From the UHGV virus genome UHGV-0119636: 27,711 bases of DNA. One strand, 5' to 3'. Numbering within the stretch: position 1 is the stretch's first letter; the number at the start of each line of letters is the position of its first letter. The position numbers were made by a program, and so were the translations under genes. This DNA comes from a virus. Below are positions 1 to 15,016 of the stretch, piece after piece. The notes under the pieces were generated by a model. That model was not told where the DNA came from. It searched no databases and saw only the letters and a program-made list of their open reading frames with translations.

Positions 1-1854
1 GCTTTTAATCGCTTCAAAATTTACCATTTTATCTTCTCCTTTCGTCGGTAAACCAGAGCTAATCGTTGCGATGGGCAAATCATTACACTTTGTAAGTTTT
101 CTTCGTAATGAGCTTTTACCCGTGAACACTTTCACTTCGATGTGGTCGTCATAAATACGACTCAGTTTTTTCACATCTCCCGTATAAATATAATGAAGAT
201 GAATACCTCCACCACTTTTGCTTAACTCAGCATATGTTGGAGGCCATTTACTAGCTGCTTCAAGATTCTTCTCGAAACATTTATTACCATTCTCGTCCTT
301 AATATCAAAGTCAATAACTACATGATTTTCAGGGACCTTGACGTAATGAAGTTTTGATGTGTCAAGTTCTGATAGGGTAGTTGAAACTTCATCCCATGGC
401 TTCGTCGGAGTTTCTTTTGAAGTAGCATATTGAGCTGGACAATCAGAACATTCTTTATCAAAAATAGACTCCTGTTCTTCAAATATAAGCCAGCTCTCAG
501 TTTTCTCATCTCCAATAGGTTTCTCTGCTTTAACCTTTTTCTTCCCACCAATAGAGTCTTCGAAAATATCAGTCTTAAAACCGTCGTAATAACTCAGCAG
601 CTTACTTCCATCTTCTTTCTCCACCTTCTCATCAAATTCCAAAAAATAGTTTCTCAACTCGTCTTTGAATTTTGTCTTAGAAAATGGATACGGCACTTTT
701 GCTTCCTCACAGTAGTTTTTATACATCTCCCATGCTGCTTTTAGCGTAGTACCATCTTCTTTCTTGAAGACACTGAATGAATCACATACGAAGTTATAAA
801 AGTCATTAGAAGCCATAAGCATGTCCTTCGGAGCGTAAGTATCGTAATACTCTGGATCTTCTTTAAAGACTTGTAAACAATGATATGCGATTGCTCCCAA
901 CTCAAAATCAACCTGTTTGGTCAATCTACGATATTCTCGAATCGGTATCTTGTTTCCAGTAGGACGAACGTCAATCAAACGCCTTAGTAAACCAGACTTA
1001 GCATCAGTGATCTTAACAGGTGTGTTTGTACCCATAAATAAAAAACATTTGAATCTTGTTTCATATTGTCCTTTAAATTTTTCATTCATGGTCATTATCT
1101 CGTGTGAAATCACCGAGTTTAAGCGCGTATTATCTTCGATTTTTGATAAATCACCATCATGTTGTATCGCTACAAGAGGGTTATTCTTAAACGGTTCCAG
1201 AGCGAAAACATTATTCGGATTACCCAAAGCTTTTGCGTCAAAAGAACAACAATATCCTTCAAATAATTTCTCGATAATATTTATGATAGTTGATTTACCA
1301 GTACCACCAGCTCCGTAAAGCACCAGGAACTTTTGAAGTATTTTTGATTCCCCAGATACAACGGAGCCGATAGCCCATTCTATTTTACGTCGTTCTTCTT
1401 CGGAATATAGAGTACCGATGAGTTTATCCCATGCAGAAATATCGCCAGGTTCGAGAGGATACGGGAGTCTCTTGCTTGCGAAATTCTCTCTGCTTAATTC
1501 TGTGTTTGAAAATATAAGTTCATCATCGAGTACAGCAAAGTTATCACGCATCTGTTTCTGACAATATTTATGGAACTTATCGATTGAGCCACTGTCAGCA
1601 TCCCACATATACTTAATTACAGGAGTACCTTCAAGACGTCCTTCATTTTCAGCGACATATCTATCAAGTTCTCTATCTACAAGACGGGTTACATCGTCTT
1701 CATCTGTACTCCACATCTTTCGATCTTCATCCCAGATAGCGTAAAAGTCCCTACCTCGAATCATGAGATCTTTAGATTTCAACATTTTGAACTTAGGAGA
1801 AACATCAACACTGCTTTTATTCGTCTTCGTTGATACTGTCATGAAGTCCAACAT
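1..1854 (-). CDS. Replication protein, P-loop NTPase with primase-polymerase-like motifs (partial, continues beyond window start)
   Basis: Open minus-strand frame runs from ATG at 1854 off the left edge (618 codons). Walker A motif LYGAGGTGKST; later VIDFDIKDE and SGGGIHLHY resemble primase-polymerase catalytic motifs. SD AAGGAGG lies 11 nt upstream of the ATG. Confidence 0.7.
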   Translation of the reverse strand, partial: MLDFMTVSTKTNKSSVDVSPKFKMLKSKDLMIRGRDFYAIWDEDRKMWSTDEDDVTRLVDRELDRYVAENEGRLEGTPVIKYMWDADSGSIDKFHKYCQKQMRDNFAVLDDELIFSNTELSRENFASKRLPYPLEPGDISAWDKLIGTLYSEEERRKIEWAIGSVVSGESKILQKFLVLYGAGGTGKSTIINIIEKLFEGYCCSFDAKALGNPNNVFALEPFKNNPLVAIQHDGDLSKIEDNTRLNSVISHEIMTMNEKFKGQYETRFKCFLFMGTNTPVKITDAKSGLLRRLIDVRPTGNKIPIREYRRLTKQVDFELGAIAYHCLQVFKEDPEYYDTYAPKDMLMASNDFYNFVCDSFSVFKKEDGTTLKAAWEMYKNYCEEAKVPYPFSKTKFKDELRNYFLEFDEKVEKEDGSKLLSYYDGFKTDIFEDSIGGKKKVKAEKPIGDEKTESWLIFEEQESIFDKECSDCPAQYATSKETPTKPWDEVSTTLSELDTSKLHYVKVPENHVVIDFDIKDENGNKCFEKNLEAASKWPPTYAELSKSGGGIHLHYIYTGDVKKLSRIYDDHIEVKVFTGKSSLRRKLTKCNDLPIATISSGLPTKGEDKMVNFEAIKS

Positions 1855-2074: not shown

Positions 2075-2629
2075 CTAAACAAAAGTATCTAAATACCATA
2101 ACATTTGAATCCAGATTTCAAATTTACGTAAGTCATGATCGCAATTCTTAACTCTGAATAATCCACCGCGGCCGTCGGGTTCATATTCACGTTTGAGAAA
2201 TGTGTTGATCACTTCTCTAACATACTTTTTATCAAACCTGGAATCATACATACCGCCCAAACCGAGATTTACGATCATCTTCCAGAACCATTGTCCTGTT
2301 CTATCGCCGACACTCGGATCGTCCATAATATCTTCGCAACGAATTGCAAGAGCTATTATCATTTCTAGGATACTACATGGACGAGATAACATATCGACGA
2401 TAACTTCTCGGCTTTCAGGGCTGTATATTTCATAAGCAAACCGACTTCTCAGATTTTCTCCGTCAGTTTCTCTGTTCTCATCTTTTGGGATGCTGTATCT
2501 GAATTCAATCTCATGTAAATATTCCAAAAGCTTTTTATATGAATTTGCTTTGGCATATCTACCACTGCATACCAGATTATACATCCACTCGAAATATTCT
2601 ATCTCAATTTCAGTCCTCGTCACCGCCAA
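2075..2629 (-). CDS. Hypothetical protein, about 184 aa
   Basis: ORF track; the listed start is TTG, a GTG two codons in has better SD spacing. Start uncertain. Confidence 0.5.
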   Translation of the reverse strand: MAVTRTEIEIEYFEWMYNLVCSGRYAKANSYKKLLEYLHEIEFRYSIPKDENRETDGENLRSRFAYEIYSPESREVIVDMLSRPCSILEMIIALAIRCEDIMDDPSVGDRTGQWFWKMIVNLGLGGMYDSRFDKKYVREVINTFLKREYEPDGRGGLFRVKNCDHDLRKFEIWIQMLWYLDTFV

Positions 2630-4064: not shown

Positions 4065-5003
4065 TCAAATCATGTTGAGAATATCCCCATCCACATTGAA
4101 ATCAAGAAGAATAGTTCTCTCATAACCGTTCACGAAGTTACGATTTGCCTCGTTGTAAGTGTTATAGATTCCGAAATCTACGAAATTATCACCTACTGGA
4201 TGTTTCTCGTCATAAATCCATCCAACAATCTGACCTGCCTGTGTACGCGGGATTCCGAGCATATCATATACTTCATTCAGGAACAGATGACCTTTCGTTT
4301 TCAACATGTCATTTGCATAACGCTGCTGATCTTTAAGGAACATTAGATTGAATTCAGGATCTTTAGTCCATCCTGTACATCCATCATCGAAGAATTTAGC
4401 ATAATCGCTGTAACTGTCGAGAGTTGCTACATTTGCTGTTTTCTTAACAGTAGTTTCTGTACCATCTTCATTTACAACAGTCTCTTCGATTTCTTTTGCT
4501 TTGATGTTGTACTTCAGTTCTTTATCAAGCTCTTCACCAAATCTCTCAATAACACGACCACGATATTCCTTGAAGCCTTTGTCAATAGTTGCATAAGCGG
4601 CTGCAAGTGCTAAGTTACGTTTACGAAGAATATGATGACCACTAAGAATAGCAGCGATAGAAACTGTTCCAAGGATTACTGCTGGAGCATAAAGTTTTGC
4701 TACCTTTACGGCTGTTTGAGTATACATGATAGTTAAATCTTTCTTACCATCTTCTTCTGTGTACTCTTTACCTTCTGGAACCATATCTGGATTTTCCATA
4801 AATTCATGAATTTTCTCGATTTTTTCTTTTGGCTCAGCGAGCACCTCATCGAGTTTAGTAGTTGCTTTACATGCCATTACAGCAGAGCCAACTACACCAA
4901 CAATACCTGCGCCAACCAAGATTTCAGGGCTATGCTTTTTAAATTTAAAACCTACACGATGGAGGCTTCTAGTTACTGTGTTCATAATTTCTAATTTTGC
5001 CAT
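4065..5003 (-). CDS. Two-helix membrane protein, paralog family member A, 312 aa
   Basis: SD AAAAGGAGAG; N-terminal SPEILVGAGIVGVVGSAVMACKAT, second hydrophobic helix, RNLALAAAYA motif and conserved C-terminal domain shared with the genes at 7078-7905 and 9366-10133. Confidence 0.7.
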   Translation of the reverse strand: MAKLEIMNTVTRSLHRVGFKFKKHSPEILVGAGIVGVVGSAVMACKATTKLDEVLAEPKEKIEKIHEFMENPDMVPEGKEYTEEDGKKDLTIMYTQTAVKVAKLYAPAVILGTVSIAAILSGHHILRKRNLALAAAYATIDKGFKEYRGRVIERFGEELDKELKYNIKAKEIEETVVNEDGTETTVKKTANVATLDSYSDYAKFFDDGCTGWTKDPEFNLMFLKDQQRYANDMLKTKGHLFLNEVYDMLGIPRTQAGQIVGWIYDEKHPVGDNFVDFGIYNTYNEANRNFVNGYERTILLDFNVDGDILNMI

Positions 5004-5005
5004 GA

Positions 5006-5452
5006 TTATTTACTCTCCTTTTCTAATTCTTTACAAAATTCCATTAAACTTTTACCGCGAATAAGAATATCGTTTGGTGTTAAAACAATATCAGGTTCCT
5101 TGCTCTTATTCGGATTCTCAACATATTCAATAAGCCTATTGAGATACCACTGAGCTTTCTTTAAGTCCTCAATGCCGTTTTTCTTTTTCCAGCGACATAA
5201 ATACTTCATTGCATTACCTGTACAAAATGCTTCTAATCCGTTAAGACCATCACAAAAGGCCTCGATAACGTCGATAGTTTCGAGACCTGATTTTGACTGA
5301 TAATGATCCGGATGATTCACCATATCGTTTTTGGCAACCCATTGTGTCGGAATACAAAAAGGATCATCGCTCGTTATACAGTGTTTACAAGCTTCCGATC
5401 CCATTGTACGACCACAATTGTCACAATCATATTTGCTTTTTGTTATACTCAT
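5006..5452 (-). CDS. DUF3310-like protein with N-terminal Cys-rich zinc-ribbon
   Basis: SD GAAAGGAAAA; CDNCGRT..CKHC cluster; HPDHY...GLETIDVIEA...GNAMKYLCRWKKK...DLKKAQWYL pattern recalled as DUF3310 (family assignment from memory). Confidence 0.55.
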   Translation of the reverse strand: MSITKSKYDCDNCGRTMGSEACKHCITSDDPFCIPTQWVAKNDMVNHPDHYQSKSGLETIDVIEAFCDGLNGLEAFCTGNAMKYLCRWKKKNGIEDLKKAQWYLNRLIEYVENPNKSKEPDIVLTPNDILIRGKSLMEFCKELEKESK

Positions 5453-5462
5453 AGTTTTCCTT

Positions 5463-5771
5463 TCAAATATAATCTTTTACCTTCTTGCCAGTGTTATAAA
5501 TCTCTCGTTCGATTCCTAGACCAAAAGGTAATCTAACACTCTCTAATTCAGACAGCATTACATAACCCCATTCCCATTCAAAAAGATGACAATAACCGTA
5601 TAATAACCAGTCACCGTCATCTTGTTTTTCACCTTCTGTAATTAACCAGGTACCTGTTCCAGTTGGATTAAAATACTTAACTACTACATCAGCTTCTTCC
5701 ATCTTTCCTTCCTGAGAACCAATCGGATAATTTTCAAAAGTTTTCTCCAATTCATCGGTCATTAGTAGCAT
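5463..5771 (-). CDS. DUF2958-like protein, 102 aa
   Basis: VKYFNPTGTGTWLITE...DGDWLLYGYCHL..EWGYVMLSELESV pattern recalled as DUF2958 (from memory). Confidence 0.55.
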   Translation of the reverse strand: MLLMTDELEKTFENYPIGSQEGKMEEADVVVKYFNPTGTGTWLITEGEKQDDGDWLLYGYCHLFEWEWGYVMLSELESVRLPFGLGIEREIYNTGKKVKDYI

Positions 5772-5803
5772 CGTAACGACACATCCTTATTGTGTATTTT
5801 TAT

Positions 5804-6412
5804 TTAGTCAATTGGCATAGCTTTTGGCAACTTAAGAACATATCCATCTTTAATTCTCACAGTCTCGGCAGTACGAATGTTTGTCCATCCGTATTTGTTA
5901 CTTGTATACGGTGCTGGAAGAGCAGCCATATCATACATATCAGCTACAGTAACAAAGCCATATGTGTCTATAAGATCTACCATCTGTTCTCTTACAGCCT
6001 CACATTCACCGCGAGAATCAAACACAAGATCATCATAATCAAACCGGCCTTTTGCACGTAGACCACCATCACGTCGATCGTCTTTCTTATCGTCATAATA
6101 ACTTCGGTAAGATATCTTGTTCCCAGTCTTACGCTTATTACTTCCAGAACCGCCGTAAAGAATCATGTCGGCACCATCAGTAACAATATCCAAGATTGCT
6201 TTCTTAATTGCTGGAATCAAAACATCCAAGACAATATATGATTTAACATTAGCTGCATCTTCGGAAATGAACATGCTTGCTAATTTACGTCCTTCGTTTT
6301 TCTTCGTTTTCACTTTACCATTAACAACTTTCTGCACCCTCTTTTCTTTCGTAGGCGCTTCAGTTGCTTTTTCTTCTTTGCTCTTATGAGAATTCGGTTG
6401 ATATTCTCTCAT
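5804..6412 (-). CDS. Hypothetical protein, 202 aa, basic N-terminus
   Basis: ORF track; SD AGAGGTGA upstream of ATG. Confidence 0.6.
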   Translation of the reverse strand: MREYQPNSHKSKEEKATEAPTKEKRVQKVVNGKVKTKKNEGRKLASMFISEDAANVKSYIVLDVLIPAIKKAILDIVTDGADMILYGGSGSNKRKTGNKISYRSYYDDKKDDRRDGGLRAKGRFDYDDLVFDSRGECEAVREQMVDLIDTYGFVTVADMYDMAALPAPYTSNKYGWTNIRTAETVRIKDGYVLKLPKAMPID

Positions 6413-6426
6413 TTTCTTATCACCTC

Positions 6427-6630
6427 TTAATTAACCATTTTGATTTCACCAGGCAATGTTATCCTCACACCTGGCAATAAATTTAATTGTTTCTTAGCCT
6501 GATAAGTTAAGTTACTCCTGGCTTTTTGTTTTGATGAAGCACTTGTTTCACCCTTCCAACGATCGATCATGCATTTATCAAACGACATTACAGGACCTTC
6601 GTATGTGTATTTGTCATACTCTTCGTTCAT
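6427..6630 (-). CDS. Hypothetical protein, 67 aa
   Basis: ORF track; SD AGGAGG upstream. Confidence 0.45.
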   Translation of the reverse strand: MNEEYDKYTYEGPVMSFDKCMIDRWKGETSASSKQKARSNLTYQAKKQLNLLPGVRITLPGEIKMVN

Positions 6631-6702
6631 TGTTACCTCCTAGAAACAAAAAGAGAAGAGTCCCATAATTGAGACCCGTCTCTTTTTCGAATACTTTAAA
6701 TG

Positions 6703-7008
6703 TTATTTCTCGGCTGCTTCCTCGTCGATTTCTTCCTCGATAACGGATTCATCTTCAGGTTCATCAACCTCTTCAACCTCGACCCATTTCAGTCTTTTCT
6801 TGGCTTTCTTCTTTTTAGGCTGCTCGTCTTTCTTTTTGGATTTGATTTTCTTGTAAGCTGCTGCTCCTAATGCAACTGCTCCAGCAATCAATCCTACTGT
6901 CAGACCGATAGCCTTTCCAGATCCACCTTCTTCTACTGAATAGTCTTCCGGCTCCAGGTCAATAACCTCAACCTCGTTATCCATTACTTCGTCTTTGATT
7001 TCGCTCAT
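6703..7008 (-). CDS. Membrane protein with acidic termini, 101 aa
   Basis: ORF-track start at 7050 is the ATG inside the promoter motif; the real start is the ATG at 7008 preceded by SD AAAGGAGG. One helix GLTVGLIAGAVALGAAAY, then a lysine-rich stretch and acidic tail. Confidence 0.55.
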   Translation of the reverse strand: MSEIKDEVMDNEVEVIDLEPEDYSVEEGGSGKAIGLTVGLIAGAVALGAAAYKKIKSKKKDEQPKKKKAKKRLKWVEVEEVDEPEDESVIEEEIDEEAAEK

Positions 7009-7047
7009 AGCAAGATCCTCCTTTAAAATAATTTTAAGTATTTTCTT

Positions 7048-7074
7048 CATAAAGCACTGTGTATTTTTCGCGTA
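7048..7074 (-). promoter_or_regulatory. Conserved promoter/operator-like element, copy p
   Basis: Plus strand cataaagcactgtgtatttttcgcgta; member of the 17-copy family; about 40 nt upstream of the start at 7008. Confidence 0.5.
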
Positions 7075-7077
7075 TGA

Positions 7078-7905
7078 TTAATAGTAGCTATCGAAACCAT
7101 ATTCCGGAGGCATCAGATGATCAATAACAATACACGGTTCATTATCTTCCGTAATTTGAGCACTATATCTCACATCGATTTTGCCTTTATCGATTCTCCA
7201 ACCGATGCTATTACCAACTTCGGTATGCTTAAGACCAATTTCGTCATAGAAATCATTCAGAGAAATATACATCTCGTTACCGTTGATCATTCTCTCATTA
7301 AGAGTAAGAACAGCATTTTTAATCTTGTCGATATCCGATCTGAAATATCTGTCGGAATGACTGTCATAACACAACGTGTTACCTTTACCTGTCATGATAA
7401 TCTGAGTGTCTGCAACCGGATGTTCTTCAACTTGCTTCTTAGCGACTTTATCTCTGATGTTATTTTCCTTCTTCTCTCCGATAGTCTCTACCACTTTCTC
7501 TCTGTAGTCAGACAGTGCTGTTGTAGATAACTGATATGCTGTTGCCAATGCTGCGTTACGTCTTACATGTACGGAATTAGCACCGATAAGACAAGCGACT
7601 GACGCAATGCCAGTGATAGCTGCTGGAATATAAGGTTTCCAAGCTGCTTTTACTGTTTCGACAGGTGTGAGATTTAAAGCGTTTCTTTCGTCTTCTTCTG
7701 TGAAAATACCGCCTTCATGAGCTTCTTTCTCTTTAAACTTCTTCTCTTCCTCGATTAACTCCATAGCTTTTGGTGTTGCTTTTACTGCAAGCACAACAGT
7801 AGATATCATACCTGCGATACCAATGCCAGTAAGAATTTCCGGACTGCGTTTTTTCATTACATATTTTGCAGTGTTTAAAAATTTTGTTACATTTGGTTTG
7901 TTCAT
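7078..7905 (-). CDS. Two-helix membrane protein, paralog family member C, 275 aa
   Basis: SD GAAAGGAGA; SPEILTGIGIAGMISTVVLAVKATPKAMELIEEE N-terminus almost identical to the 9366-10133 gene; conserved C-terminal domain. Confidence 0.7.
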   Translation of the reverse strand: MNKPNVTKFLNTAKYVMKKRSPEILTGIGIAGMISTVVLAVKATPKAMELIEEEKKFKEKEAHEGGIFTEEDERNALNLTPVETVKAAWKPYIPAAITGIASVACLIGANSVHVRRNAALATAYQLSTTALSDYREKVVETIGEKKENNIRDKVAKKQVEEHPVADTQIIMTGKGNTLCYDSHSDRYFRSDIDKIKNAVLTLNERMINGNEMYISLNDFYDEIGLKHTEVGNSIGWRIDKGKIDVRYSAQITEDNEPCIVIDHLMPPEYGFDSYY

Positions 7906-7994
7906 TTTTTATCTCCTTTCATGAACAGTTAAATTGTTTTTACCAAAAATCCCACTCGGGAAAATTTTGATCTTGAAAAAATAGAAATCGAAAA

Positions 7995-8066
7995 GAAACA
8001 GTGTAGGACTCGAACCCACAACCTACAGATATAAGTCTGTTGCTCTACCAATTGAGCTAACTGTTT
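7995..8066 (-). tRNA. tRNA gene, anticodon probably UAU (Ile), with an unusual anticodon arm
   Basis: Hand fold: acceptor AAACAGT/ACTGTTT, D-arm GCTC-AATTGGTA-GAGC, T-arm GTGGG-TTCGAGT-CCTAC, 72 nt, no encoded CCA. The anticodon arm ACAGA-CUUAUA-UCUGU is 16 nt, one short of canonical. Starts 5 nt after the -10-like end of motif q. Confidence 0.65.
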
Positions 8067-8070
8067 CTTC

Positions 8071-8100
8071 TCATAATAGCGCTTGTAAATTTCGCGAATA
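8071..8100 (-). promoter_or_regulatory. Conserved promoter/operator-like element, copy q (drives the tRNA)
   Basis: Plus strand tcataatagcgcttgtaaatttcgcgaata. Confidence 0.55.
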
Positions 8101-8142
8101 TAGATCTTCAGAAACAAAAAAGAAGAACCCCGAAGGATTCTC

Positions 8143-8313
8143 CTAGACTTTCTTCTGAAGCTCAGAAACTGCTTTCTTCAACTCTTCAAACTCCTTTTCT
8201 TTTTTCTGATCTGATAATGCACCTGCTATAGCCATAATACCTGTTACTACAACACCTGCATATTTTCCGACAGACTTCAGAAGCGGATTATTGATAATAC
8301 CTTTGAATTTCAT
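8143..8313 (-). CDS. Small membrane protein, 56 aa
   Basis: Found by hand; SD GAAAGGAGA; hydrophobic YAGVVVTGIMAIAGAL; motif o lies upstream. Confidence 0.45.
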   Translation of the reverse strand: MKFKGIINNPLLKSVGKYAGVVVTGIMAIAGALSDQKKEKEFEELKKAVSELQKKV

Positions 8314-8336
8314 TTTTCTCGTCTCCTTTCTTCATT

Positions 8337-8366
8337 CCATTAAAGGAAATGTTTTTGTCGCGATAC
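8337..8366 (-). promoter_or_regulatory. Conserved promoter/operator-like element, copy o
   Basis: Plus strand ccattaaaggaaatgtttttgtcgcgatac. Confidence 0.5.
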
Positions 8367-8400
8367 CGGTTTCGCTATATCAAAATATCATCGTTTATCG

Positions 8401-8856
8401 TCACCCGTGTATGGGTAAATCCATTTTGATTTTGTCAGGATTCATAATGAGGATACTATCGCAGTCCCAGCCATACAGATCCCAATATAACTGATGATCA
8501 GCTGATAAATTTAACTCGATGGCATCATAGCCAAGTTCAATGCATTTCTCGAAATCTATCAGTGTACTTATTGATTTCCATACCGGGTCAGCAATTGTTG
8601 GAAGTTCCTTTAATTTTTCTACGGAATCTATAACGAATATATTGGCTTCCGGAAGAGTGAATATGAAACTATTTTCTTCAATACATTCACGAAAATTTTC
8701 TCTTTCACACCAGTCTTTCCAACCTAATTTGGCATCTATCGGACTAGCCCAAAGACCTCCTCTAGGTTTAACCCAGCATTGCTCATTTTGAATAGGTTTA
8801 AATAAGTTTGGATTAAAAGTTGCATGTCCGTAATGAATATAAATCTTGTCTTGCAT
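8401..8856 (-). CDS. Hypothetical protein, 151 aa
   Basis: ORF track extends to 8889, but the SD AAAGGA precedes the internal ATG at 8856 (MQDKIY...). Confidence 0.55.
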   Translation of the reverse strand: MQDKIYIHYGHATFNPNLFKPIQNEQCWVKPRGGLWASPIDAKLGWKDWCERENFRECIEENSFIFTLPEANIFVIDSVEKLKELPTIADPVWKSISTLIDFEKCIELGYDAIELNLSADHQLYWDLYGWDCDSILIMNPDKIKMDLPIHG

Positions 8857-8914
8857 ATTACTATCCTTTCGTTCAAAAACATATGTCACTTAGTAACAAA
8901 AAGAAAAGAGGCCC

Positions 8915-9118
8915 CTATTTCAGGACCTCAAATTTCTCTTTTTTATTTTTCTTGATTTTATTCTCAACGGATTCTTTCCATTGATTCGCTTTAGTTGCCA
9001 CTGCCTGTCTGACTTCTGGAATAGCAAGTGCCGAACCGACAACCGTTACTGCCGGCACAACAATCTGTCCAATCCAAAGTCTTACTTCTCTCATAGCATC
9101 AATATTTTTGCGTTTCAT
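8915..9118 (-). CDS. Small membrane protein, 67 aa
   Basis: SD AAAGGAGGA; hydrophobic IGQIVVPAVTVVGSALAI; a hairpin overlaps the stop. Confidence 0.5.
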   Translation of the reverse strand: MKRKNIDAMREVRLWIGQIVVPAVTVVGSALAIPEVRQAVATKANQWKESVENKIKKNKKEKFEVLK

Positions 9119-9150
9119 AGTTTTATCCTCCTTTAAAAATATAATCTTTT

Positions 9151-9177
9151 CATTAAAGGCGTTGTTTATTTAGCGAG
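9151..9177 (-). promoter_or_regulatory. Conserved promoter/operator-like element, copy n
   Basis: Plus strand cattaaaggcgttgtttatttagcgag. Confidence 0.5.
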
Positions 9178-9352
9178 TGTAATGGATATGCTCATTGTTT
9201 AATTCGTCGAGATGTTTAATAAAATCTAAATATCTTTTATTTCGTCTATTCTCCACAAAGTTTATAACTAACCAAGCAATCCCTACGATAGGCAAGCCAA
9301 CGAATACTAATAGAAATAGTAAGCATGTAATCATAGAAACAAGCGTATTCAT
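9170..9352 (-). CDS. Small membrane protein, 60 aa
   Basis: Internal ATG at 9352 has strong SD GAAAGGAGA; hydrophobic ITCLLFLLVFVGLPIVGIAWLVI; coupled to the upstream paralog gene. Confidence 0.5.
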   Translation of the reverse strand: MNTLVSMITCLLFLLVFVGLPIVGIAWLVINFVENRRNKRYLDFIKHLDELNNEHIHYTR

Positions 9353-9365
9353 AAATCTTCTCCTT

Positions 9366-10133
9366 TCAATACTCTTCGTAATCAATGAACGGCTCTGTGA
9401 AATCTACAATATAACATTCAATACCGTCGTCCATTTCTACTTTTGTATGGTGGAAATATAGCCAACCATCCCAGTACATTTCATACATCTGAGCTGCGGA
9501 CCAACCCATAAATTCACCGTAATCCTGTCGATCAATCTCTAGTAAATCGTAATAATCGTTTAAAGATGCACCACCGGATTGAGATAGCATTTTATTAATC
9601 TCATACTCTGCTCTCAATTGAGTTTCTTTCGTCACACGGTAATAACGTTTGGAATATTCATCGTAGAATAGTGTTTTGCCATCCTCGTATTCGTCGTCAT
9701 ATTCTTCTTTGTCTTCTTCCTCGTAATGGTCTTTTGCTACAGCAGCACGAATGAGTTTGTCTCCGTCTTCACCATATAACTTTTTAACTTTGTTTTTGTA
9801 CTCTTTGTGAGTTTGGTCTAGTAAGGCATAAGCAGATGCGATGGCTGCTTGGGAATGTTTGTTTAATAGATTCGCGCCAAATATGCAAGCTAGGGTTCCT
9901 GTTCCAATCAATAAGGAAGGAATATATGTTGGTCCTGCTACTCGAATAGTCTCCCATTTTGTTAATTCATCTCCTTTCTCTTCTTCAGCTAGTTCAATAA
10001 GTTCCATTGCTTTCGGAGTAGCTTTAACCGCCATTACAGCTGTACCTACCACTCCGGCAGCTCCTAATACTGTTAATATAGTAGAGCTGTTTTTCTTTAC
10101 GAATCTTTTCGAAACTGTTAGTAAGTCATTCAT
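9366..10133 (-). CDS. Two-helix membrane protein, paralog family member B, 255 aa
   Basis: ATG at 10133 with SD GGAG 10 nt upstream (ORF-track start at 10142 is GTG); N-terminus SSTILTVLGAAGVVGTAVMAVKATPKAMELIE; conserved C-terminal domain. Confidence 0.7.
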   Translation of the reverse strand: MNDLLTVSKRFVKKNSSTILTVLGAAGVVGTAVMAVKATPKAMELIELAEEEKGDELTKWETIRVAGPTYIPSLLIGTGTLACIFGANLLNKHSQAAIASAYALLDQTHKEYKNKVKKLYGEDGDKLIRAAVAKDHYEEEDKEEYDDEYEDGKTLFYDEYSKRYYRVTKETQLRAEYEINKMLSQSGGASLNDYYDLLEIDRQDYGEFMGWSAAQMYEMYWDGWLYFHHTKVEMDDGIECYIVDFTEPFIDYEEY

Positions 10134-10252
10134 TTCCAGCACGCTCCTTGGCGATAAATTTGGTAAAAATAAAAAGAGAAAGAAAAGAGTCAGCTTGTTG
10201 TGTAAACCAAGTCTAACTCAATTCTTTTTGTCATTATCCGAAATAACAATAT

Positions 10253-10284
10253 CCCATAACAGGTGATGTAATTTTCGCGAATCC
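10253..10284 (-). promoter_or_regulatory. Conserved promoter/operator-like element, copy c
   Basis: Plus strand cccataacaggtgatgtaattttcgcgaatcc. Confidence 0.5.
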
Positions 10285-10506
10285 CTACTGCTCAAAAAAT
10301 AAAACTACATCTACCGGATCTTTGAAGTGCTGCTCCTCCACTACTTCTTTAAATTCTTCAAATGATTCCGGTTCGTATTCTTGTAAATATAAAATCTGTT
10401 CAAGCAATCTTCCGTAAAATCCTTGAGAATTAGATAGCATTTTTACCACACCAATGACTTGTTCAACATCATAACCGTCTGCTTTCTTTTCCATAGCGTT
10501 TGCCAT
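10285..10506 (-). CDS. Small strongly acidic protein, 73 aa
   Basis: ATG at 10506 with SD AAAGGAG (track start 10515 is GTG); many Asp/Glu; no hydrophobic helix. Confidence 0.5.
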   Translation of the reverse strand: MANAMEKKADGYDVEQVIGVVKMLSNSQGFYGRLLEQILYLQEYEPESFEEFKEVVEEQHFKDPVDVVLFFEQ

Positions 10507-10682
10507 TTTGAACACTCCTTTAATTGGTTTTTGATAAAAATAAAAAGAGAATACAATGACTTCAGGGTCGGCCCAACGAAAACCGTTGCCCGGTGGGTAG
10601 CATGTTTTATTACGTTATTACGTGCCGCTACGCCTTCGTGTCTCACCACTGGATTTCCACCAGTATCTATCCATTGCTTTCT
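10507..10682 (-). other. Long GC-rich structured 5' leader between motif a and the acidic-protein gene
   Basis: About 175 nt without a convincing ORF; stem CAACG/CGTTG flanked by GGCC/CCCGG; possible 18-codon leader ORF with tandem Trp codons. Confidence 0.35.
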
Positions 10683-10714
10683 CTCATAATAGGTGATGTA
10701 ATTTTCGCGAATAG
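10683..10714 (-). promoter_or_regulatory. Conserved promoter/operator-like element, copy a
   Basis: Plus strand ctcataataggtgatgtaattttcgcgaatag. Confidence 0.5.
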
Positions 10715-10738
10715 AAAAAGAAAATGCCTAGTTTTTAA

Positions 10739-11002
10739 CTAGACAAATTCTTTAATAATTATTGTTCCACCAACTACATCGATTTTTATTTTATTCATCG
10801 CTTTCAACATACTAGCCACTTTTTGCACTGGTAACTTACTTGTGAAACCATAGAACACCAAGTCGCCCATGGTATATACATGCCCTACTGAATACTTAAC
10901 TTCAATATCGGCTGTATATTTGCCAAGGCAATCCATTGCTCCTAAATTTTTCACAACTTCGTTTTTATTCGCGCATAAAGTAATTTCATATTTAGTAAAC
11001 AT
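10739..11002 (-). CDS. Hypothetical protein, 87 aa
   Basis: SD AAGGAGG; motif b about 33 nt upstream. Confidence 0.55.
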   Translation of the reverse strand: MFTKYEITLCANKNEVVKNLGAMDCLGKYTADIEVKYSVGHVYTMGDLVFYGFTSKLPVQKVASMLKAMNKIKIDVVGGTIIIKEFV

Positions 11003-11034
11003 ATAAATTCCTCCTTATTCGATTTCATTGTTTT

Positions 11035-11067
11035 TCTCATAATAGGTGATGTAATTTTCGCGAAAAC
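11035..11067 (-). promoter_or_regulatory. Conserved promoter/operator-like element, copy b
   Basis: Plus strand tctcataataggtgatgtaattttcgcgaaaac; contains the 12-bp palindrome TTTTCGCGAAAA. Confidence 0.55.
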
Positions 11068-11085
11068 AAAAGAGAAAGGGCCCAT

Positions 11086-11223
11086 GTTACTGAGCCACTT
11101 TCGCTTTCTTATGATTTTTAACTGCTTTCTTAGAAACCTCTACTGCTTTATTCACTGCATCACTTGCCAAACTACCGACTACCAATCCGCCAGCAATCTC
11201 AATAATGTGTCTAACTAAAACAT
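11086..11223 (-). CDS. Small membrane protein, 45 aa
   Basis: Found by hand; SD AGGAGG; hydrophobic IIEIAGGLVVGSLA. Confidence 0.4.
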
Positions 11224-11258
11224 TCATTTTAGATTCCTCCTGTTAAGCAATTTATTAT

Positions 11259-11288
11259 CTTTCCATAATAGGACTTGTAATTTTCGCG
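11259..11288 (-). promoter_or_regulatory. Conserved promoter/operator-like element, copy d
   Basis: Plus strand ccataataggacttgtaattttcgcgaatt. Confidence 0.5.
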
Positions 11289-11320
11289 AATTAAAAGAAA
11301 AGACACCGTGTTTCAGGTGC

Positions 11321-11548
11321 CTAATCCTCTGAATCAACCATTTGTTCAATTTTCAGTAATACTTTCTGATCAATTTCTCCATCCGCATTGATATGAAATC
11401 GTATTTTACCATCCTTCATCTCAGCTTCTATCTCACTAATACGGATGTCTGGTTTGACTCCAATATTTTTGTATATAGCTCTAGATATAAGTTTGGCTAC
11501 CATACCTCTCATAAATCTAGTAGATAATTTAATTTTCATTTCGTCCAT
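11321..11548 (-). CDS. Hypothetical protein, 75 aa
   Basis: SD AGAAGGAGGAGG; motif e upstream. Confidence 0.55.
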   Translation of the reverse strand: MDEMKIKLSTRFMRGMVAKLISRAIYKNIGVKPDIRISEIEAEMKDGKIRFHINADGEIDQKVLLKIEQMVDSED

Positions 11549-11574
11549 AATTACCTCCTCCTTCTAGGTTGTTT

Positions 11575-11606
11575 CCTATAATAGGGGAAGTTTAAGTCGC
11601 GAAAAC
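11575..11606 (-). promoter_or_regulatory. Conserved promoter/operator-like element, copy e
   Basis: Plus strand cctataataggggaagtttaagtcgcgaaaac. Confidence 0.5.
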
Positions 11607-11634
11607 AAAAGAAAGAGCAGTGGGTGACACCGCT

Positions 11635-11742
11635 CTAACTGTTTCTCAAAAATCGAATGAGAATCCATACAAGCCATAATCCTCCGGTTGCAAATACTAA
11701 TACAAAGTCGATAAGCAATCCGAATAATCCACGCTTTTTCAT
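11635..11742 (-). CDS. Possible very small membrane peptide, 35 aa
   Basis: Found by hand; SD AAAGGAGAAG; hydrophobic GLFGLLIDFVLVFATGGLWLVWILI. Confidence 0.3.
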   Translation of the reverse strand: MKKRGLFGLLIDFVLVFATGGLWLVWILIRFLRNS

Positions 11743-11768
11743 GATTATCTTCTCCTTTCATTTTCTTT

Positions 11769-11797
11769 TCACAATAGGAGAAGTTTTTATCGCGTGC
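11769..11797 (-). promoter_or_regulatory. Conserved promoter/operator-like element, copy f
   Basis: Plus strand tcacaataggagaagtttttatcgcgtgc. Confidence 0.45.
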
Positions 11798-11845
11798 ATT
11801 ATCAGTTCCTTCAAATACAAAATAAAAGAGACCAATCGGCCTCTC

Positions 11846-11995
11846 TTACATGTTTCGTTTAGAAAGTTCTTCTGCTACCTTCTTTGCAATCTTTTCATCC
11901 AATAACTTATCTGTACTTTGTTTCCCTGCGAATGTTAATCCCGCACTAACAATAGCTGTTATAAGCTTTGCAATTCTAATTACTTTTGGTGACAT
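11846..11995 (-). CDS. Small protein, 49 aa
   Basis: Found by hand; SD AAAGGAGG; hydrophobic IAKLITAIVSAGLTFAG. Confidence 0.4.
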   Translation of the reverse strand: MSPKVIRIAKLITAIVSAGLTFAGKQSTDKLLDEKIAKKVAEELSKRNM

Positions 11996-12010
11996 AAATA
12001 TACCTCCTTT

Positions 12011-12038
12011 CTATAATAGAAGAGGTTTAAATCGCGCG
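12011..12038 (-). promoter_or_regulatory. Conserved promoter/operator-like element, copy g
   Basis: Plus strand ctataatagaagaggtttaaatcgcgcg. Confidence 0.45.
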
Positions 12039-12386
12039 TCTATCGAAGCAAGTTTCCCATCGTTCTCGCTTAACTGGCTTCATTTTCATAGTCCACATCA
12101 TTTGTCGGACCGTTACGGTGGGATATAAACCGTTCTCAGGTTCTCCCGATCTATCCTCGAAGAACTCCAGGAATCTTTCATGTAAATATAAAGTGTCTGT
12201 CAGCCACGGATCAATCTCGCCCCACCAGGTATTTTTCGTCGCTGGATCATATCGCTGCTGAATAACAGCTAGTCCTTTTCGTCCCATTTTGAATAAAGTA
12301 CATTTACTGTAAACTGGATGATCACATTCATAAGTTTCTCCGTACATCGATACATAAACTTTTGGCTTTTCGTAGTGATAACGCAT
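12027..12386 (-). CDS. Hypothetical protein, 119 aa
   Basis: SD GAAAGGA; a diverged motif-like element lies upstream (about 12411-12445). Confidence 0.6.
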   Translation of the reverse strand: MRYHYEKPKVYVSMYGETYECDHPVYSKCTLFKMGRKGLAVIQQRYDPATKNTWWGEIDPWLTDTLYLHERFLEFFEDRSGEPENGLYPTVTVRQMMWTMKMKPVKRERWETCFDRRAI

Positions 12387-12480
12387 ATTACTATTATCCT
12401 TTCTTTAACTTTAGTTATATAACTTTTGTTTAAACTCTCGCGTTAGGAAATATAAAAGAAGAAAAAAAAAGAAAAGACTA

Positions 12481-12560
12481 TGGGAATAGCGCGGGATTCG
12501 AACCCACGACGTTGAGTTTCCTCTTATTCTTCCATTAGAACTAACCGTCTTAACTATTCC
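12481..12560 (-). tRNA. tRNA-like gene with non-canonical body, possibly a Ser-type or degenerate tRNA
   Basis: Canonical T-arm GTGGG-TTCGAAT-CCCGC and 7-bp acceptor GGAATAG/CTATTCC, about 80 nt; no canonical D-arm or 17-nt anticodon arm found by hand; a GAGGAAACTC hairpin could be a variable arm. Confidence 0.45.
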
Positions 12561-12607
12561 AGAGACTTCTTCCGATATATTGCTATACGGGAATTGTTCT
12601 CTTCTTT

Positions 12608-12638
12608 TCTATAATAGGAAATGTTTATTTAGCGAAAG
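12608..12638 (-). promoter_or_regulatory. Conserved promoter/operator-like element, copy h (upstream of the tRNA-like gene)
   Basis: Plus strand tctataataggaaatgtttatttagcgaaag. Confidence 0.5.
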
Positions 12639-12679
12639 AAAATAGCCCAGGCGTTTAACCCGAGCTAATTCTCTTAAAC

Positions 12680-13048
12680 TTATTCGTTACCATTGAGTTT
12701 CTCAATAGCTTCAACCTTCCTGCTGTCAAACATCGTAGAATTTACAATACTCATCACAGCTTTGTAATATGTTTTCGGCTGATCCTTCTTGAGCAACTCT
12801 ATCGCCTGAACTTTACGACTATCAAACATGCTGCTGTTCATTATCGAAGCTACCGCACTGTCATAATCTGCTGTGCTAAATATATCCGCTAATAAATCAA
12901 CTTCATATGTGTCCTGTTTTCGTTTCTTTTCACGCAATACAACTGCCACAATTGGAATCGCAATACCAATCCCATTTGCTACATATTCTGTGATTTTCCA
13001 TAAACTCTCTTTTGTTTTCTCGCTAGTTAAAACTTCTTTGATTTTCAT
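12680..13048 (-). CDS. Membrane protein with two internal ~30-aa repeats, 122 aa
   Basis: SD AGGAGG; hydrophobic IGIAIPIVAVVL; repeats SIMNSSMFDSRKVQAIELLKKDQ and SIVNSTMFDSRKVEAIEKLNGNE. Confidence 0.6.
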   Translation of the reverse strand: MKIKEVLTSEKTKESLWKITEYVANGIGIAIPIVAVVLREKKRKQDTYEVDLLADIFSTADYDSAVASIMNSSMFDSRKVQAIELLKKDQPKTYYKAVMSIVNSTMFDSRKVEAIEKLNGNE

Positions 13049-13073
13049 ATCAATAACCTCCTATAAGTTTATT

Positions 13074-13106
13074 CTCATAACAGGCGTTGTAATAATAGCG
13101 AAAAAG
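13074..13106 (-). promoter_or_regulatory. Conserved promoter/operator-like element, copy i
   Basis: Plus strand ctcataacaggcgttgtaataatagcgaaaaag. Confidence 0.5.
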
Positions 13107-13148
13107 AAGAGCCTAAGTCATTTCGACTCAAGCCCTTCCATTTTGAAA

Positions 13149-13532
13149 TTACTTTTTTGGGAGTAACTTCTGAATGAATCCTCGACCCATTATTGTTGTG
13201 ATGGTTCCAGTCTCTTCGAATTTGATAGACTTGATTGTGCCCCAGATAGTAACCGCTGTCGGTATAACAATACCCGCTCCTGTTAAGCAATTCTTAACAA
13301 CTCGATCTTTTCGTTCATCTTTAAGCTGCTCTGCTCTTAATTCAGCATCAACATTTTGCTGATCCTTTTTAAGTTCTTGTTCAGCCTTAATTTTCTCAAG
13401 TTCGATTGCTCGATCACATAACTTTGTCAGGCCGTCTACCGTATTTTTGTACTTATCTGTACCTACTTCAAGTTTTCCTAACTCTTCGAATTCGTCCTGA
13501 ATCTCATCTTTTAATAATGTTTCAATACTCAT
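13149..13532 (-). CDS. Coiled-coil protein with C-terminal hydrophobic helix, 127 aa
   Basis: Track start 13562 is the ATG inside motif j; the real start is the ATG at 13532 after SD AAGGAGG. Confidence 0.55.
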   Translation of the reverse strand: MSIETLLKDEIQDEFEELGKLEVGTDKYKNTVDGLTKLCDRAIELEKIKAEQELKKDQQNVDAELRAEQLKDERKDRVVKNCLTGAGIVIPTAVTIWGTIKSIKFEETGTITTIMGRGFIQKLLPKK

Positions 13533-13556
13533 TTTGAACTCCTCCTTATATTCGTA

Positions 13557-13588
13557 TTTCATAATAGGGAATGTTATTTTTGCGACAG
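13557..13588 (-). promoter_or_regulatory. Conserved promoter/operator-like element, copy j
   Basis: Plus strand tttcataatagggaatgttatttttgcgacag. Confidence 0.5.
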
Positions 13589-13783
13589 ATCTACTCTAAG
13601 CATTACGTGTTTATCTTTTCGTAGCTTATATGCCTTACCACTATCTATTTCTAAAAATAAATACGGTGCTGAGTCTGGATCTGAGCTGTCTACTTTCAGT
13701 GTGCCGATTGGCTTTTTTACTAAGAGTGTCGTTGCCACAACTGCACCTATCAGCATACCTACTAATAAAAATAAAAGTTCCAC
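13574..13783 (-). CDS. Small membrane protein, 69 aa, GTG start
   Basis: SD AAAGGAGGAAG before the internal GTG at 13783 (track start 13849 has no SD); hydrophobic LLFLLVGMLIGAVVATTLLV. Confidence 0.45.
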   Translation of the reverse strand: MELLFLLVGMLIGAVVATTLLVKKPIGTLKVDSSDPDSAPYLFLEIDSGKAYKLRKDKHVMLRVDLSQK

Positions 13784-13943
13784 TACGCTACTTCCTCCTT
13801 TCTTCAATAGAATTGTTTTATCGAAAACTCCCTCCCGGGAAATTTTCACTTTAGAATTTTAATATTGTTTCCTGTCACCTATGTACGGAATATCTATTCT
13901 AGATTAGAGTTTGTTTTAATCTAGGTTAAAGAAAAAAGAGAGC

Positions 13944-14180
13944 CTAAGCCCTCTTATCTGTCATAAAACTTGGTAACTGAAGTTCTGGTTTATAAGTCAT
14001 TAACTCTGCTTCATATAGCCTCATGATAATAGCTATCTCATCTTCATGAATACTTTTTATCAACTTAAAGACTTTATCATAATCAACATCTGATTTATTC
14101 TTCATTTGACAAATATAATCCACGAGTCTGGTATACTTATCATCCGCAGTTCCTATCATTGCCGCAAATTTAACTTCCAT
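13944..14180 (-). CDS. Hypothetical protein, 78 aa
   Basis: SD AAGGAGGA; motif k upstream. Confidence 0.55.
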   Translation of the reverse strand: MEVKFAAMIGTADDKYTRLVDYICQMKNKSDVDYDKVFKLIKSIHEDEIAIIMRLYEAELMTYKPELQLPSFMTDKRA

Positions 14181-14213
14181 AATTTATCCTCCTTAAATTT
14201 AAAGTTTTATGTT

Positions 14214-14246
14214 TCTATAAAGTAGTATGTATTTTTGGCGAAAAAG
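14214..14246 (-). promoter_or_regulatory. Conserved promoter/operator-like element, copy k
   Basis: Plus strand tctataaagtagtatgtatttttggcgaaaaag. Confidence 0.45.
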
Positions 14247-14261
14247 AAAAGAAGAGACCGA

Positions 14262-14462
14262 TTAGGCCTCCTCTTTAAATAACTCAGGGTATTTCTCCAT
14301 CAGTTCTTTTCTGTCTCGTTCAATGTCTTTTTCTATATGCTCGATTTCTGCTTCCAATTTACCTGTGCTTTTACCTAAACGGTAACCCAGATAAGATCCT
14401 ACAGCATAAACCAATCCGGCATATAAACCAAAACCTAAACCAGCTTTTAAATTAGCTTTCAT
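14262..14462 (-). CDS. Small membrane protein with glycine-zipper helix, 66 aa
   Basis: SD AGGAG; GLGFGLYAGLVYAVGSYLGY; imperfect terminator hairpin overlaps the stop. Confidence 0.5.
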   Translation of the reverse strand: MKANLKAGLGFGLYAGLVYAVGSYLGYRLGKSTGKLEAEIEHIEKDIERDRKELMEKYPELFKEEA

Positions 14463-14486
14463 GATAGATCACTCCTATAATTTATT

Positions 14487-14516
14487 CTCATAATAGGCGT
14501 TGTTTTAGTCGCGATC
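14487..14516 (-). promoter_or_regulatory. Conserved promoter/operator-like element, copy l
   Basis: Plus strand ctcataataggcgttgttttagtcgcgatc. Confidence 0.5.
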
Positions 14517-14693
14517 ATCAAACGGTACTTCTATGTTTTCAATCTCGTCAGAAATAATCTCCCCGTCACCGATAAGTAGTTCTCTTTTGTTTATTTGATT
14601 AACGCTAGTTCGATATATACCCTCAGCTACTGCTAGTCCGATAAATGTACTTACTCCCCAAAGAATTCCTTTGATTAATTTATTAGTATCCAT
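14505..14693 (-). CDS. Small membrane protein, 62 aa
   Basis: Internal ATG at 14693 after AGAGGAAAA; hydrophobic GILWGVSTFIGLAVAEGI; its stop lies inside motif l. Confidence 0.45.
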   Translation of the reverse strand: MDTNKLIKGILWGVSTFIGLAVAEGIYRTSVNQINKRELLIGDGEIISDEIENIEVPFDDRD

Positions 14694-14773
14694 TTTGAAT
14701 TTTCCTCTCATGATATATTCTCTATTGGAAATCAAAAGGAAGAGTATCTGCATAGATACCCGCCTTTTTGTTT

Positions 14774-14989
14774 TTAATTATTGCTTGTGGTCCAACCCAT
14801 GTTGTTCTGTGTGAATGAGTTGTTAATGCCGTTGATAGTTCTTACTCTATCCTCGTACAATGAATTGTCGCTAATGATGCTAACTCCGAATTTCCATTTG
14901 AAGTCTGGAATTTCGTTAGCTGCTTTCATAGCTTCATCCCATTTCTCAAGGAAGACTTCTATCGCATATCCTCTCTCTACACTATCCAT
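14774..14989 (-). CDS. Hypothetical protein, 71 aa
   Basis: SD AGGAGGG; motif m upstream. Confidence 0.5.
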   Translation of the reverse strand: MDSVERGYAIEVFLEKWDEAMKAANEIPDFKWKFGVSIISDNSLYEDRVRTINGINNSFTQNNMGWTTSNN

Positions 14990-15016
14990 GTCGTTACCCT
15001 CCTTTATAATAATTTT

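Follow-up and report, generated by a model that had tools for sequence, protein, structure and literature searches.

What role do three related genes for putative membrane proteins play in a phage, and why does the phage carry three of them? These questions are raised by UHGV virus genome UHGV-0119636, of which we analysed a stretch of 27,711 nucleotides (called the window). The window comes from a temperate siphophage or prophage of gut Clostridia. An earlier note on this DNA had described the three genes as paralogs; we call their products S1 and S2 (short forms) and Lg (long form). Sequence comparison identifies the three genes as new members of a known, uncharacterised family, DUF6353. We tentatively propose, at a probability of about 0.3, that S1, S2 and Lg would be non-redundant subunits of an early, cytoplasm-facing, hetero-oligomeric membrane platform linked to the replication module.

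We examined the relationship of the three genes (Table 1) by hidden Markov model (HMM) scans, BLASTP and motif comparison. Scanning every open reading frame of the window yielded exactly three family members. Composition-adjusted BLASTP of the three pairs gave E values of 2e-32, 2e-20 and 3e-37, with alignments extending through the C-terminal domain. Thus, the similarity is not an artefact of hydrophobic composition, the explanation that would have undone the proposed paralogy. In a three-way alignment, identity to the first sequence was 29–32% and 46 columns were invariant over the entire length. The N-terminal motif SPEIL.G.GI.G is present in copies 1 (Lg) and 2 (S2) and reads SSTILTVLGAAG in copy 3 (S1), and VKATPKAMELIE is exact in copies 2 and 3. 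Copies 1 and 2 contain RN.ALA.AY, for which copy 3 has SQAAIASAY, and all three copies carry (S/F)LN(D/E)xYD and GW. Together with the Pfam matches given below, these results bear out the earlier description of a three-member family in which a conserved C-terminal domain follows two hydrophobic helices near the N-terminus; the motifs quoted there are present, copy 3 being variant at two of them. Of the three copies, S1 has diverged furthest and is the most acidic, with a net charge of −20. It likely starts at ATG 10133, because AAGGAG lies 10 nucleotides upstream, a GTG at 10142 is too near to AAGGAG, and the gene call on a contig of the identical phage (L001) also has 255 amino acids. In S2, the hydrophobic helices span approximately residues 23–41 and 91–111 and the C-terminal domain residues 175–275; Lg has a longer inter-helix loop and a longer C-terminal domain than the short forms.

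The family had not been recognised from the sequence, and in this respect the earlier description has to be corrected. The three paralogs matched Pfam PF19880 (DUF6353) with 292.1, 298.8 and 198.9 bits (gathering cutoff: 25 bits) over model positions 2–252, 1–252 and 1–246 of 253. They also matched PHROG 2152 (‘unknown function’; E values 4e-93, 1.7e-91 and 1.5e-66) over approximately positions 2–271 of 273, and close homologs carry the NCBI name ‘DUF6353 family protein’. Single-sequence searches returned at least 8,000 candidate homologs, with PF19880 in every protein among the matches listed. When 1.84 billion representatives were searched with a profile, 12,241 clusters reached E ≤ 1e-3 and 4,453 reached E ≤ 1e-30; the 150 proteins among the matches listed were 249–336 amino acids long with near-complete coverage. 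Clustered at 50% identity, the family forms about 12,000 groups; at 90%, it forms more than 8,000. Its hosts are Gram-positive only, ranging from Actinobacteria to Clostridia and Lactococcus, where it resides in phages and prophages, including strictly lytic phages; tblastn against plasmids gave no family match. DUF6353 is thus among the larger phage-only families without a function, abundant in prophages of human-gut Clostridia and in hundreds of cultured actinophages. Searches of Pfam, PHROG and the PDB gave no match to a characterised structural or replication protein. NCBIfam returned nothing meaningful for the paralogs, and PADLOC models matched neither the three paralogs nor four neighbours at E ≤ 0.1.

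To which extent is the triad a peculiarity of this phage? Exactly three DUF6353 genes on the same strand were found in 61 of 87 loci (80 of the 87 from IMG/VR), most of the remainder being cut by contig ends, and the triad order was shared in approximately 150 related loci with three clean ortholog clades. When 185 proteins were clustered, gene position coincided with clade in the triad loci (60/60/60), with mean identities of 46–61% within and 23–32% between positions. In 80 loci from bacterial genomes, the gene order was near-invariant: a139-a137-a119-S1-S2-(s67)-PHROG4079-(DUF3310)-Lg-PHROG4695-PHROG4678. The paralog genes are core genes, being present in 80/80 and approximately 75/80 related loci in fixed order. 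On account of this clade structure, we rejected a recent duplication within the phage.

The deepest split in the family separates Lg from the short forms S1 and S2. Gordonia and Arthrobacter phages have two copies, one on each side of this split; the S2 clade (pos2) includes the first actinophage copy, and S1 falls into clade pos1 in 60/60 cases. Since the actinophage copies fall on both sides, the short/long duplication appears from these clusters to be older than the divergence of the branches infecting Actinobacteria and Firmicutes. An inter-phylum phage lineage and the shared ancestry of these two branches are documented in 10.1101/842583. Actinophages thus have a pair, and in the Clostridia branch an extra short paralog makes a triad.

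These findings contradict the suggestion that triplication provides specificity variants: the three genes form deeply diverged ortholog groups, their order is near-invariant in essentially every relative examined, the duplication is ancient and the short/long pair is already present in actinophages. The pattern speaks for a single machine with non-redundant subunits rather than for variants that could replace one another. The roles that had been suggested along with the variants, i.e. superinfection exclusion, host takeover and anti-defence, fared differently from one another. Core, syntenic, lineage-wide genes that also occur in strictly lytic phages are an unusual signature for exclusion or anti-defence accessory genes, and no PADLOC model matched; exclusion and takeover nevertheless remain live rivals and are considered below with the evidence that bears on them.

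We then asked what kind of protein the subunits might be. Each paralog has two uncharged hydrophobic segments with Kyte-Doolittle values of 1.5–2.05 over 19 residues. After a basic N-terminal tail come a first helix without charged residues (Kyte-Doolittle about 1.9) and a conserved KAT(P/T)K motif; an acidic loop then connects to a second charge-free helix that opens with Y.P. A conserved juxtamembrane helix, R(N).A.A.AY...Y(R)..V.E..GE, leads into a charged linker, beyond which lies an acidic C-terminal domain (C-domain) of 100–120 amino acids. The mostly helical loop has approximately 30, 50 and 60–70 amino acids across the copies, depending on the choice of helix boundaries. Among 153 family members (150 representatives and the three window paralogs), a charge-free core of 15 residues was found in 96% for the first transmembrane (TM) segment, TM1, and in 91% for TM2. 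The net charge is +3 to +6 in the N-terminal tail, −3 to −5 in the loop, +1 to +2 after TM2, and −7 to −12 in the C-domain (−14 for S1 in the window). The positive, negative and positive net charges of tail, loop and post-TM2 region are moderate evidence for a putative hairpin of two helices whose N- and C-terminus would both face the cytoplasm. Actinophage annotations label homologs ‘membrane protein’.

Conservation was highest in the membrane part. Within the ortholog groups S2 and Lg, the two helices and the juxtamembrane helix had values of 0.5–0.9 bits and the C-domain 1.2–1.3 bits; the inter-helix loop was most variable (2.4 bits in S2, with insertions and deletions). The small residues G29, G32, A40, A43 and T44 were kept at the 85% level, and G99, S102 and G108 were nearly invariant in an alignment of close homologs. 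Since conservation peaks in TM1, TM2 and the juxtamembrane helix, this pattern marks the hydrophobic helices as functional and not as a mere anchor. None of Asp, Glu, His or Cys was conserved at the 85% level among the 153 members, and an enzymatic role was rejected as unlikely for want of a conserved acidic, His or Cys residue.

Strong conservation within the membrane would also be expected of a protein that takes over the host envelope, by binding or mimicking a host membrane machine (the divisome, lipid II/cell-wall synthesis or Sec/YidC) or by forming an ion pore. The conserved small residues are typical of tight packing or pores, the genes are expressed early among many small membrane proteins, and, with hosts from Actinobacteria to Clostridia and Lactococcus, only a machine conserved across many bacteria could be the target. 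However, comparisons of sequence and fold revealed no similarity to a holin, a channel or an inhibitor of division or cell-wall synthesis that is already known. Takeover also gives no reason why two or three paralogs are needed, and strict co-inheritance with phage partners together with a position in the primase operon points to a role internal to the phage. We therefore regard host takeover as an unlikely reading.

For the C-domain, structure prediction was more informative than for the whole protein. AlphaFold2 (AF2) modelled the C-domain of S2 alone (window 7081–7413) with a predicted local distance difference test (pLDDT) score of 86.5 and a predicted template modelling (pTM) score of 0.78, in the order strand-strand-helix-strand-helix-three strands. 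A sequence-profile search of the PDB gave matches only at E ≥ 1. In a Foldseek search of the BFVD viral models, all matches were family members without characterisation or proteins like PHROG 4079, including a 208-amino-acid protein of Arthrobacter phage Qui (E about 3e-3, probability 1.0) whose size fits gp85, a PHROG 4079 homolog. Alignment of PHROG 4079 with DUF6353 by hhalign revealed the core (L)N.hYD.lG...GW (P = 1.5e-4), and the PHROG 4079 protein was the best non-family match of both DUF6353 HMMs in the window, with the same motif. Taken together, the profile and fold comparisons indicate that PHROG 4079 probably carries a DUF6353-type C-domain behind a different N-terminus.

C-domains of this type also occur as leaderless stand-alone genes of 94–145 amino acids in the early regions of many relatives (examples in Table 1). 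Because these copies lack a leader, the C-domain would work in the cytoplasm. The number of DUF6353 HMM matches per locus was 3–5, and the extras that we inspected were stand-alone C-domains or fragments of open reading frames. No clear stand-alone C-domain was found in the window, where a 71-amino-acid gene (14774–14989) matched the PHROG 4079 C-domain profile weakly (E 0.023).

Strongly acidic domains tethered to the membrane could also serve anti-defence by sequestering or inhibiting immune proteins, with different paralogs for different targets. Early expression and the slight variation in paralog number (3–5 HMM matches per locus) would suit such a role. Yet the paralogs are slowly diversifying core ortholog groups, whereas anti-defence loci typically turn over fast, their intramembrane part and not the soluble domain is most conserved, and Pfam, PHROG and PADLOC gave no match to a known anti-defence family. 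Anti-defence is thus very unlikely to be their function. A direct DNA-binding anchor was also considered and rejected on account of the acidic C-domains.

If the three proteins are subunits of one platform, other components may be encoded by genes that are inherited with them. The PHROG 4079 gene was found in 80/80 IMG/VR loci, with homologs in Hydrus (gp59; E 5e-56), Qui (gp100/gp85) and Lactococcus P092 (gp38). In a phage database, PHROG 4079 and DUF6353 had 216 and 246 records with matching genus distribution and identical counts in Arthrobacter, Gordonia, Curtobacterium, Rhodococcus, Microbacterium and Faecalibacterium. The protein has a Lys-rich basic N-terminal tail and one amphipathic/hydrophobic helix, followed by the C-terminal domain. 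PHROGs 4695 and 4678 accompany the family in Clostridia phages and in Gordonia phage Hydrus. The PHROG 4695 protein begins with a hydrophobic helix, is very acidic beyond it (net charge −26) and resembles Hydrus gp61, annotated as ‘membrane protein’ (E 1e-30). The PHROG 4678 protein, for which we found no match in the PDB, resembles Hydrus gp62 (E 1.5e-40), which directly precedes the primase/polymerase gp63. The Hydrus order gp59-gp60(Lg)-gp61-gp62-gp63 (primase/polymerase) is the order of the window. About half of the relatives have DUF3310, whereas DUF2958 is rare (2/80), and we therefore consider both to be optional inserts in a conserved block.

The position of the genes relative to transcription signals agreed with what had been described, i.e. 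two copies (copies 2 and 3) in an array of promoter-like motifs and one (copy 1) in the replication module. The motif TTCGCGAAA(A/T)TTACA had eight matches on the coding strand (six exact, two near) compared with 0.35 expected; TTCGCGAAATTTACA lies upstream of S2 and TTCGCGAAAATTACA upstream of S1. Terminator-like hairpins were enriched in the gaps between small genes (20 compared with 6.6 expected). The pairing of the motif array with enriched hairpins suggests that many small early genes are mini transcription units of their own. No terminator-like hairpin was found on the coding strand between approximately 6650 and 2000, and Lg starts 2 nucleotides past the stop of the DUF3310 gene. Because of this terminator-free stretch and close spacing, copy 1 appears, from these signals, to share a transcript with the genes that run up to the primase gene. 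The early operon terminates in the DUF5906 primase-helicase gene, as seen on the identical contig L001, where the product has 1408 amino acids (PF19263) and a start equivalent to window position 1854; in the window, the open frame covers positions 1–1854 on the minus strand.

Early expression of membrane hairpins raises superinfection exclusion, or control of DNA entry, as another explanation: hairpins made early would block the channel for incoming DNA, and the loop would give specificity. The loop, predicted to be extracytoplasmic, indeed varies more than any other part, both in its sequence and in its length, and conserved TM helices would be expected for contact with a conserved partner, e.g. 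the tape-measure/ejection channel of the lineage. T4 Imm, the product of an early lytic gene, acts at the cytoplasmic membrane and shows that exclusion genes may be early lytic genes; HK97 gp15 is an inner-membrane exclusion protein. Both would resemble the paralogs as phage-made membrane proteins with small helices, but they are much smaller, are encoded by single-copy accessory genes, lack a large cytoplasmic domain and show no homology to the paralogs. Many small membrane-protein genes surround the triad, like the arrays in AM, AU and Pepy6 phages described in PMC5513430.

Known exclusion genes are typically accessory and sporadic, and their expression is usually from the prophage or as a single early gene. 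Unlike these, the paralogs are core, syntenic genes in two or three ancient groups across two phyla, and lytic phages have them too. Furthermore, a channel plug does not explain the conserved cytoplasmic domain of 100 amino acids, its sharing with PHROG 4079 or its soluble stand-alone copies. The genes also belong to the lytic early operon of this temperate phage, outside the module expressed during lysogeny (on the strand opposite the repressor and integrase genes and downstream of early promoters), and have no PADLOC match. On balance, we consider exclusion doubtful; if correct, it would be an unusual core-encoded system.

How might a platform of S1, S2 and Lg work? We propose that it would belong to the core early, replication-proximal gene set of a lineage of Gram-positive siphophages (Oengus/P092/actinophage AM-AU-BI-DJ-CC type). 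Each subunit would insert as a hairpin with its basic N-terminal tail inside and its variable acidic loop outside, and the small-residue-rich helices and the juxtamembrane helix would pack against each other. The acidic alpha/beta ‘GW’ domains would lie below the membrane, joined by the PHROG 4079 domain and, in some relatives, by free-standing copies. The platform would then organise an intracellular early process; because of the gene neighbourhood, the leading candidate is replication by the primase-helicase encoded downstream.

Subunit association was addressed by mirror-tree analysis of 94 loci. Partial correlation was highest between the non-adjacent S1 and Lg (0.44), compared with 0.36 between S2 and PHROG 4695 and 0.03 between the adjacent S1 and S2; such co-variation is only suggestive of association and is confounded by shared recombination blocks. 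That confounding is one of several points that weigh against the platform proposal. The link to replication is one of gene neighbourhood only, and S1 and S2 have promoters of their own within the array of small genes and are thus transcribed separately from the replication operon. Conserved TM helices are equally compatible with a channel or with binding to another membrane protein. The acidic C-domains are unlikely to bind DNA directly as phi29 p16.7 does. A literature search for DUF6353 or PF19880 found no paper and thus no direct functional support. The AF2 model of full-length S2, with long helices followed by a compact C-domain, is weak (pLDDT 66, pTM 0.39). The bias of Lys and Arg in the flanks near the membrane boundaries is modest (5.7 compared with 4.9), and TM2 is only marginally hydrophobic on the Hessa scale, where TM1 scored approximately +2.5 and TM2 approximately +7 kcal/mol with a fixed window.

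These unfavourable insertion energies, and the long continuous helices that AF2 predicts with moderate confidence, could mean that the proteins are not membrane proteins and that their Gly/Ala/Ser-rich helices are instead packed in the interior of a soluble helical oligomer. However, the charge-free stretches of at least 15 residues are kept in more than 90% of the 153 members at the hydropathy given above, basic residues flank the segments, and ‘membrane protein’ was called independently in curated actinophage annotations. A soluble oligomer is therefore highly improbable.

Comparison with known phage membrane proteins provided functional analogies for the proposed platform. In phi29, p16.7, together with p1, is a membrane-anchored organiser of phage DNA replication and has one TM helix and a DNA-binding C-terminal domain. 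Its likeness to the paralogs would be that of an early protein anchored in a Gram-positive membrane, with a cytoplasmic C-terminal domain and a gene near replication genes. In contrast to p16.7, the paralogs have two helices as their most conserved part and acidic C-domains; neither sequence or fold similarity to p16.7 nor a basic DNA-binding domain was found, and the resemblance is a functional analogy only. Class II holins have two TM helices with both termini inside, are 65–95 amino acids long and are made late from genes beside the endolysin. They share with the paralogs the predicted two-helix hairpin and helices rich in small residues, whereas the paralogs have 255–312 amino acids and a folded C-domain, are early and occur in three copies. 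We rejected a holin role because the paralogs lie 9–15 kb from the tail/lysis end, have early neighbours and exceed the size expected (255–312 compared with less than about 150 amino acids).

The conserved block is shared widely. Phages of actinophage clusters AM, AU, AW, BI, DJ and CC, Faecalibacterium phage FP_oengus and the Lactococcus P092 group have the same architecture, in which small early genes, many for membrane proteins, are followed by the replication module. FP_oengus, the P092 group and the actinophages share short and long DUF6353 proteins, PHROGs 4079, 4695 and 4678, and the primase. PMC5513430 describes membrane-protein gene arrays in actinophage clusters AM/AU and in Rhodococcus phages Pepy6/Poco6, and functions of actinophage arrays are stated to be unknown there and in 10.1101/2020.01.10.891226. 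A keyword search of these two sources and of 10.1101/842583 found no mention of the DUF6353 pair or its partners. Our analysis adds the subunit structure (S1/S2/Lg, short/long), the partner set, the linkage to the replication operon and the sharing of a domain. The family invariably comes as two or three ancient paralogs together with PHROG 4079. A fixed block that contains them and precedes the primase/polymerase turns the vague label ‘membrane protein’ into a defined module that can be tested.

A bolder proposal is that the short and long DUF6353 proteins and PHROG 4079, perhaps with PHROG 4695, form an essential, hitherto unrecognised membrane machine built by the phage, which would be an organising centre for replication or another indispensable early step across this trans-phylum lineage. 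In this hetero-oligomer, the conserved TM hairpins would associate specifically within the membrane, and the ‘GW’ domains, with their novel fold, would make up a platform on the cytoplasmic side. We consider this improbable; if true, such a machine would account for the long-noted membrane-protein arrays of Gram-positive siphophages, and, if essential, it would imply a membrane-linked organisation of early infection in these phages. Genetically tractable relatives exist among the Gordonia, Arthrobacter and Streptomyces phages of the SEA-PHAGES collections.

Table 1. Positions of the paralogs and other features in the window, and of stand-alone C-domains in related loci (last four rows)
Feature	Position	Strand	Remarks
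Primase-helicase gene (DUF5906, 1408 amino acids), 5' part	1..1854	minus	continues past left window end
PHROG 4678 protein, 184 amino acids, soluble	2075..2629	minus	71/80 loci; just upstream of primase gene region
PHROG 4695 protein, 197 amino acids	2610..3203	minus	71/80 loci
DUF6353 paralog Lg (copy 1), 312 amino acids, long form	4065..5003	minus	
DUF3310 (148 amino acids; PHROGs label ‘nucleotide kinase’) and DUF2958 (102 amino acids)	5006-5771	minus	between PHROG 4079 and Lg
PHROG 4079 protein, 202 amino acids	5804..6412	minus	PHROG E 1e-59
DUF6353 paralog S2 (copy 2), 275 amino acids, short form	7078..7905	minus	Pfam E 4.3e-89
tRNA gene	7994-8067	minus	Rfam tRNA, 62 bits; between promoter motif and S2
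Promoter-like motif upstream of S2	8084..8098	minus	
Terminator-like hairpin preceding S2 promoter-like motif	8121-8144		
DUF6353 paralog S1 (copy 3), 255 amino acids, short form	9366..10133	minus	Pfam PF19880 E 1.3e-58
Promoter-like motif upstream of S1	10267..10281	minus	
Promoter-like motif array	7060-15044	minus	
Early genes with one hydrophobic segment	2610-3203, 6703-7050, 8143-8313, 8915-9118, 9170-9385, 12680-13048, 13574-13849	minus	
Early genes, PHROGs 17256, 15866, 11237	12027-12386, 13149-13562, 15093-15512	minus	47-58/80 loci
Helix-turn-helix repressor and serine integrase genes	16.1-18.3 kb	plus	
Tail and tail-fibre genes	19-27.7 kb	minus	
Stand-alone C-domain, locus L007	13590-13946		Qui gp93
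Stand-alone C-domain, locus L120	388-732		
Stand-alone C-domain, locus L081	5399-5740		
Stand-alone C-domain, locus L086	5168-5488		

Approximately 30 early genes, mostly small, run leftwards from about 15.9 kb. Close homologs of the paralogs were named from Fusicatenibacter, and related loci came from Lachnospiraceae, Ruminococcus, Blautia, Hungatella, Enterocloster and Clostridium leptum. When phage genomes were searched with the region by megablast, a single short match of 80% and no close cultured relative came up. By hydropathy, small early genes with one TM-like segment are numerous; they are mostly accessory and weakly conserved, being found in ≤12/80 loci. The genes of PHROGs 17256, 15866 and 11237 precede the triad, in an order that most related phages keep, and belong to the same conserved early backbone. 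Pfam searches with ten conserved neighbours gave nothing at E ≤ 0.001; the sole match below 0.01 was a weak, sub-threshold one to HPF1 for 13152–13562.

The tRNA gene upstream of S2 has an anticodon loop of six nucleotides (CUUAUA), to which ARAGORN assigns no anticodon. tRNA genes were present in 77 of 167 early-region loci (L001, L008, L093, L107 and L109 among others), and many were abnormal, a feature that recurs in the lineage: 13 were ochre-suppressor-like tRNA(UUA), about 34 had 6-nucleotide loops and about seven had 8-nucleotide loops. The abnormal tRNAs might act in suppression or frameshifting, or might decoy anticodon nucleases.

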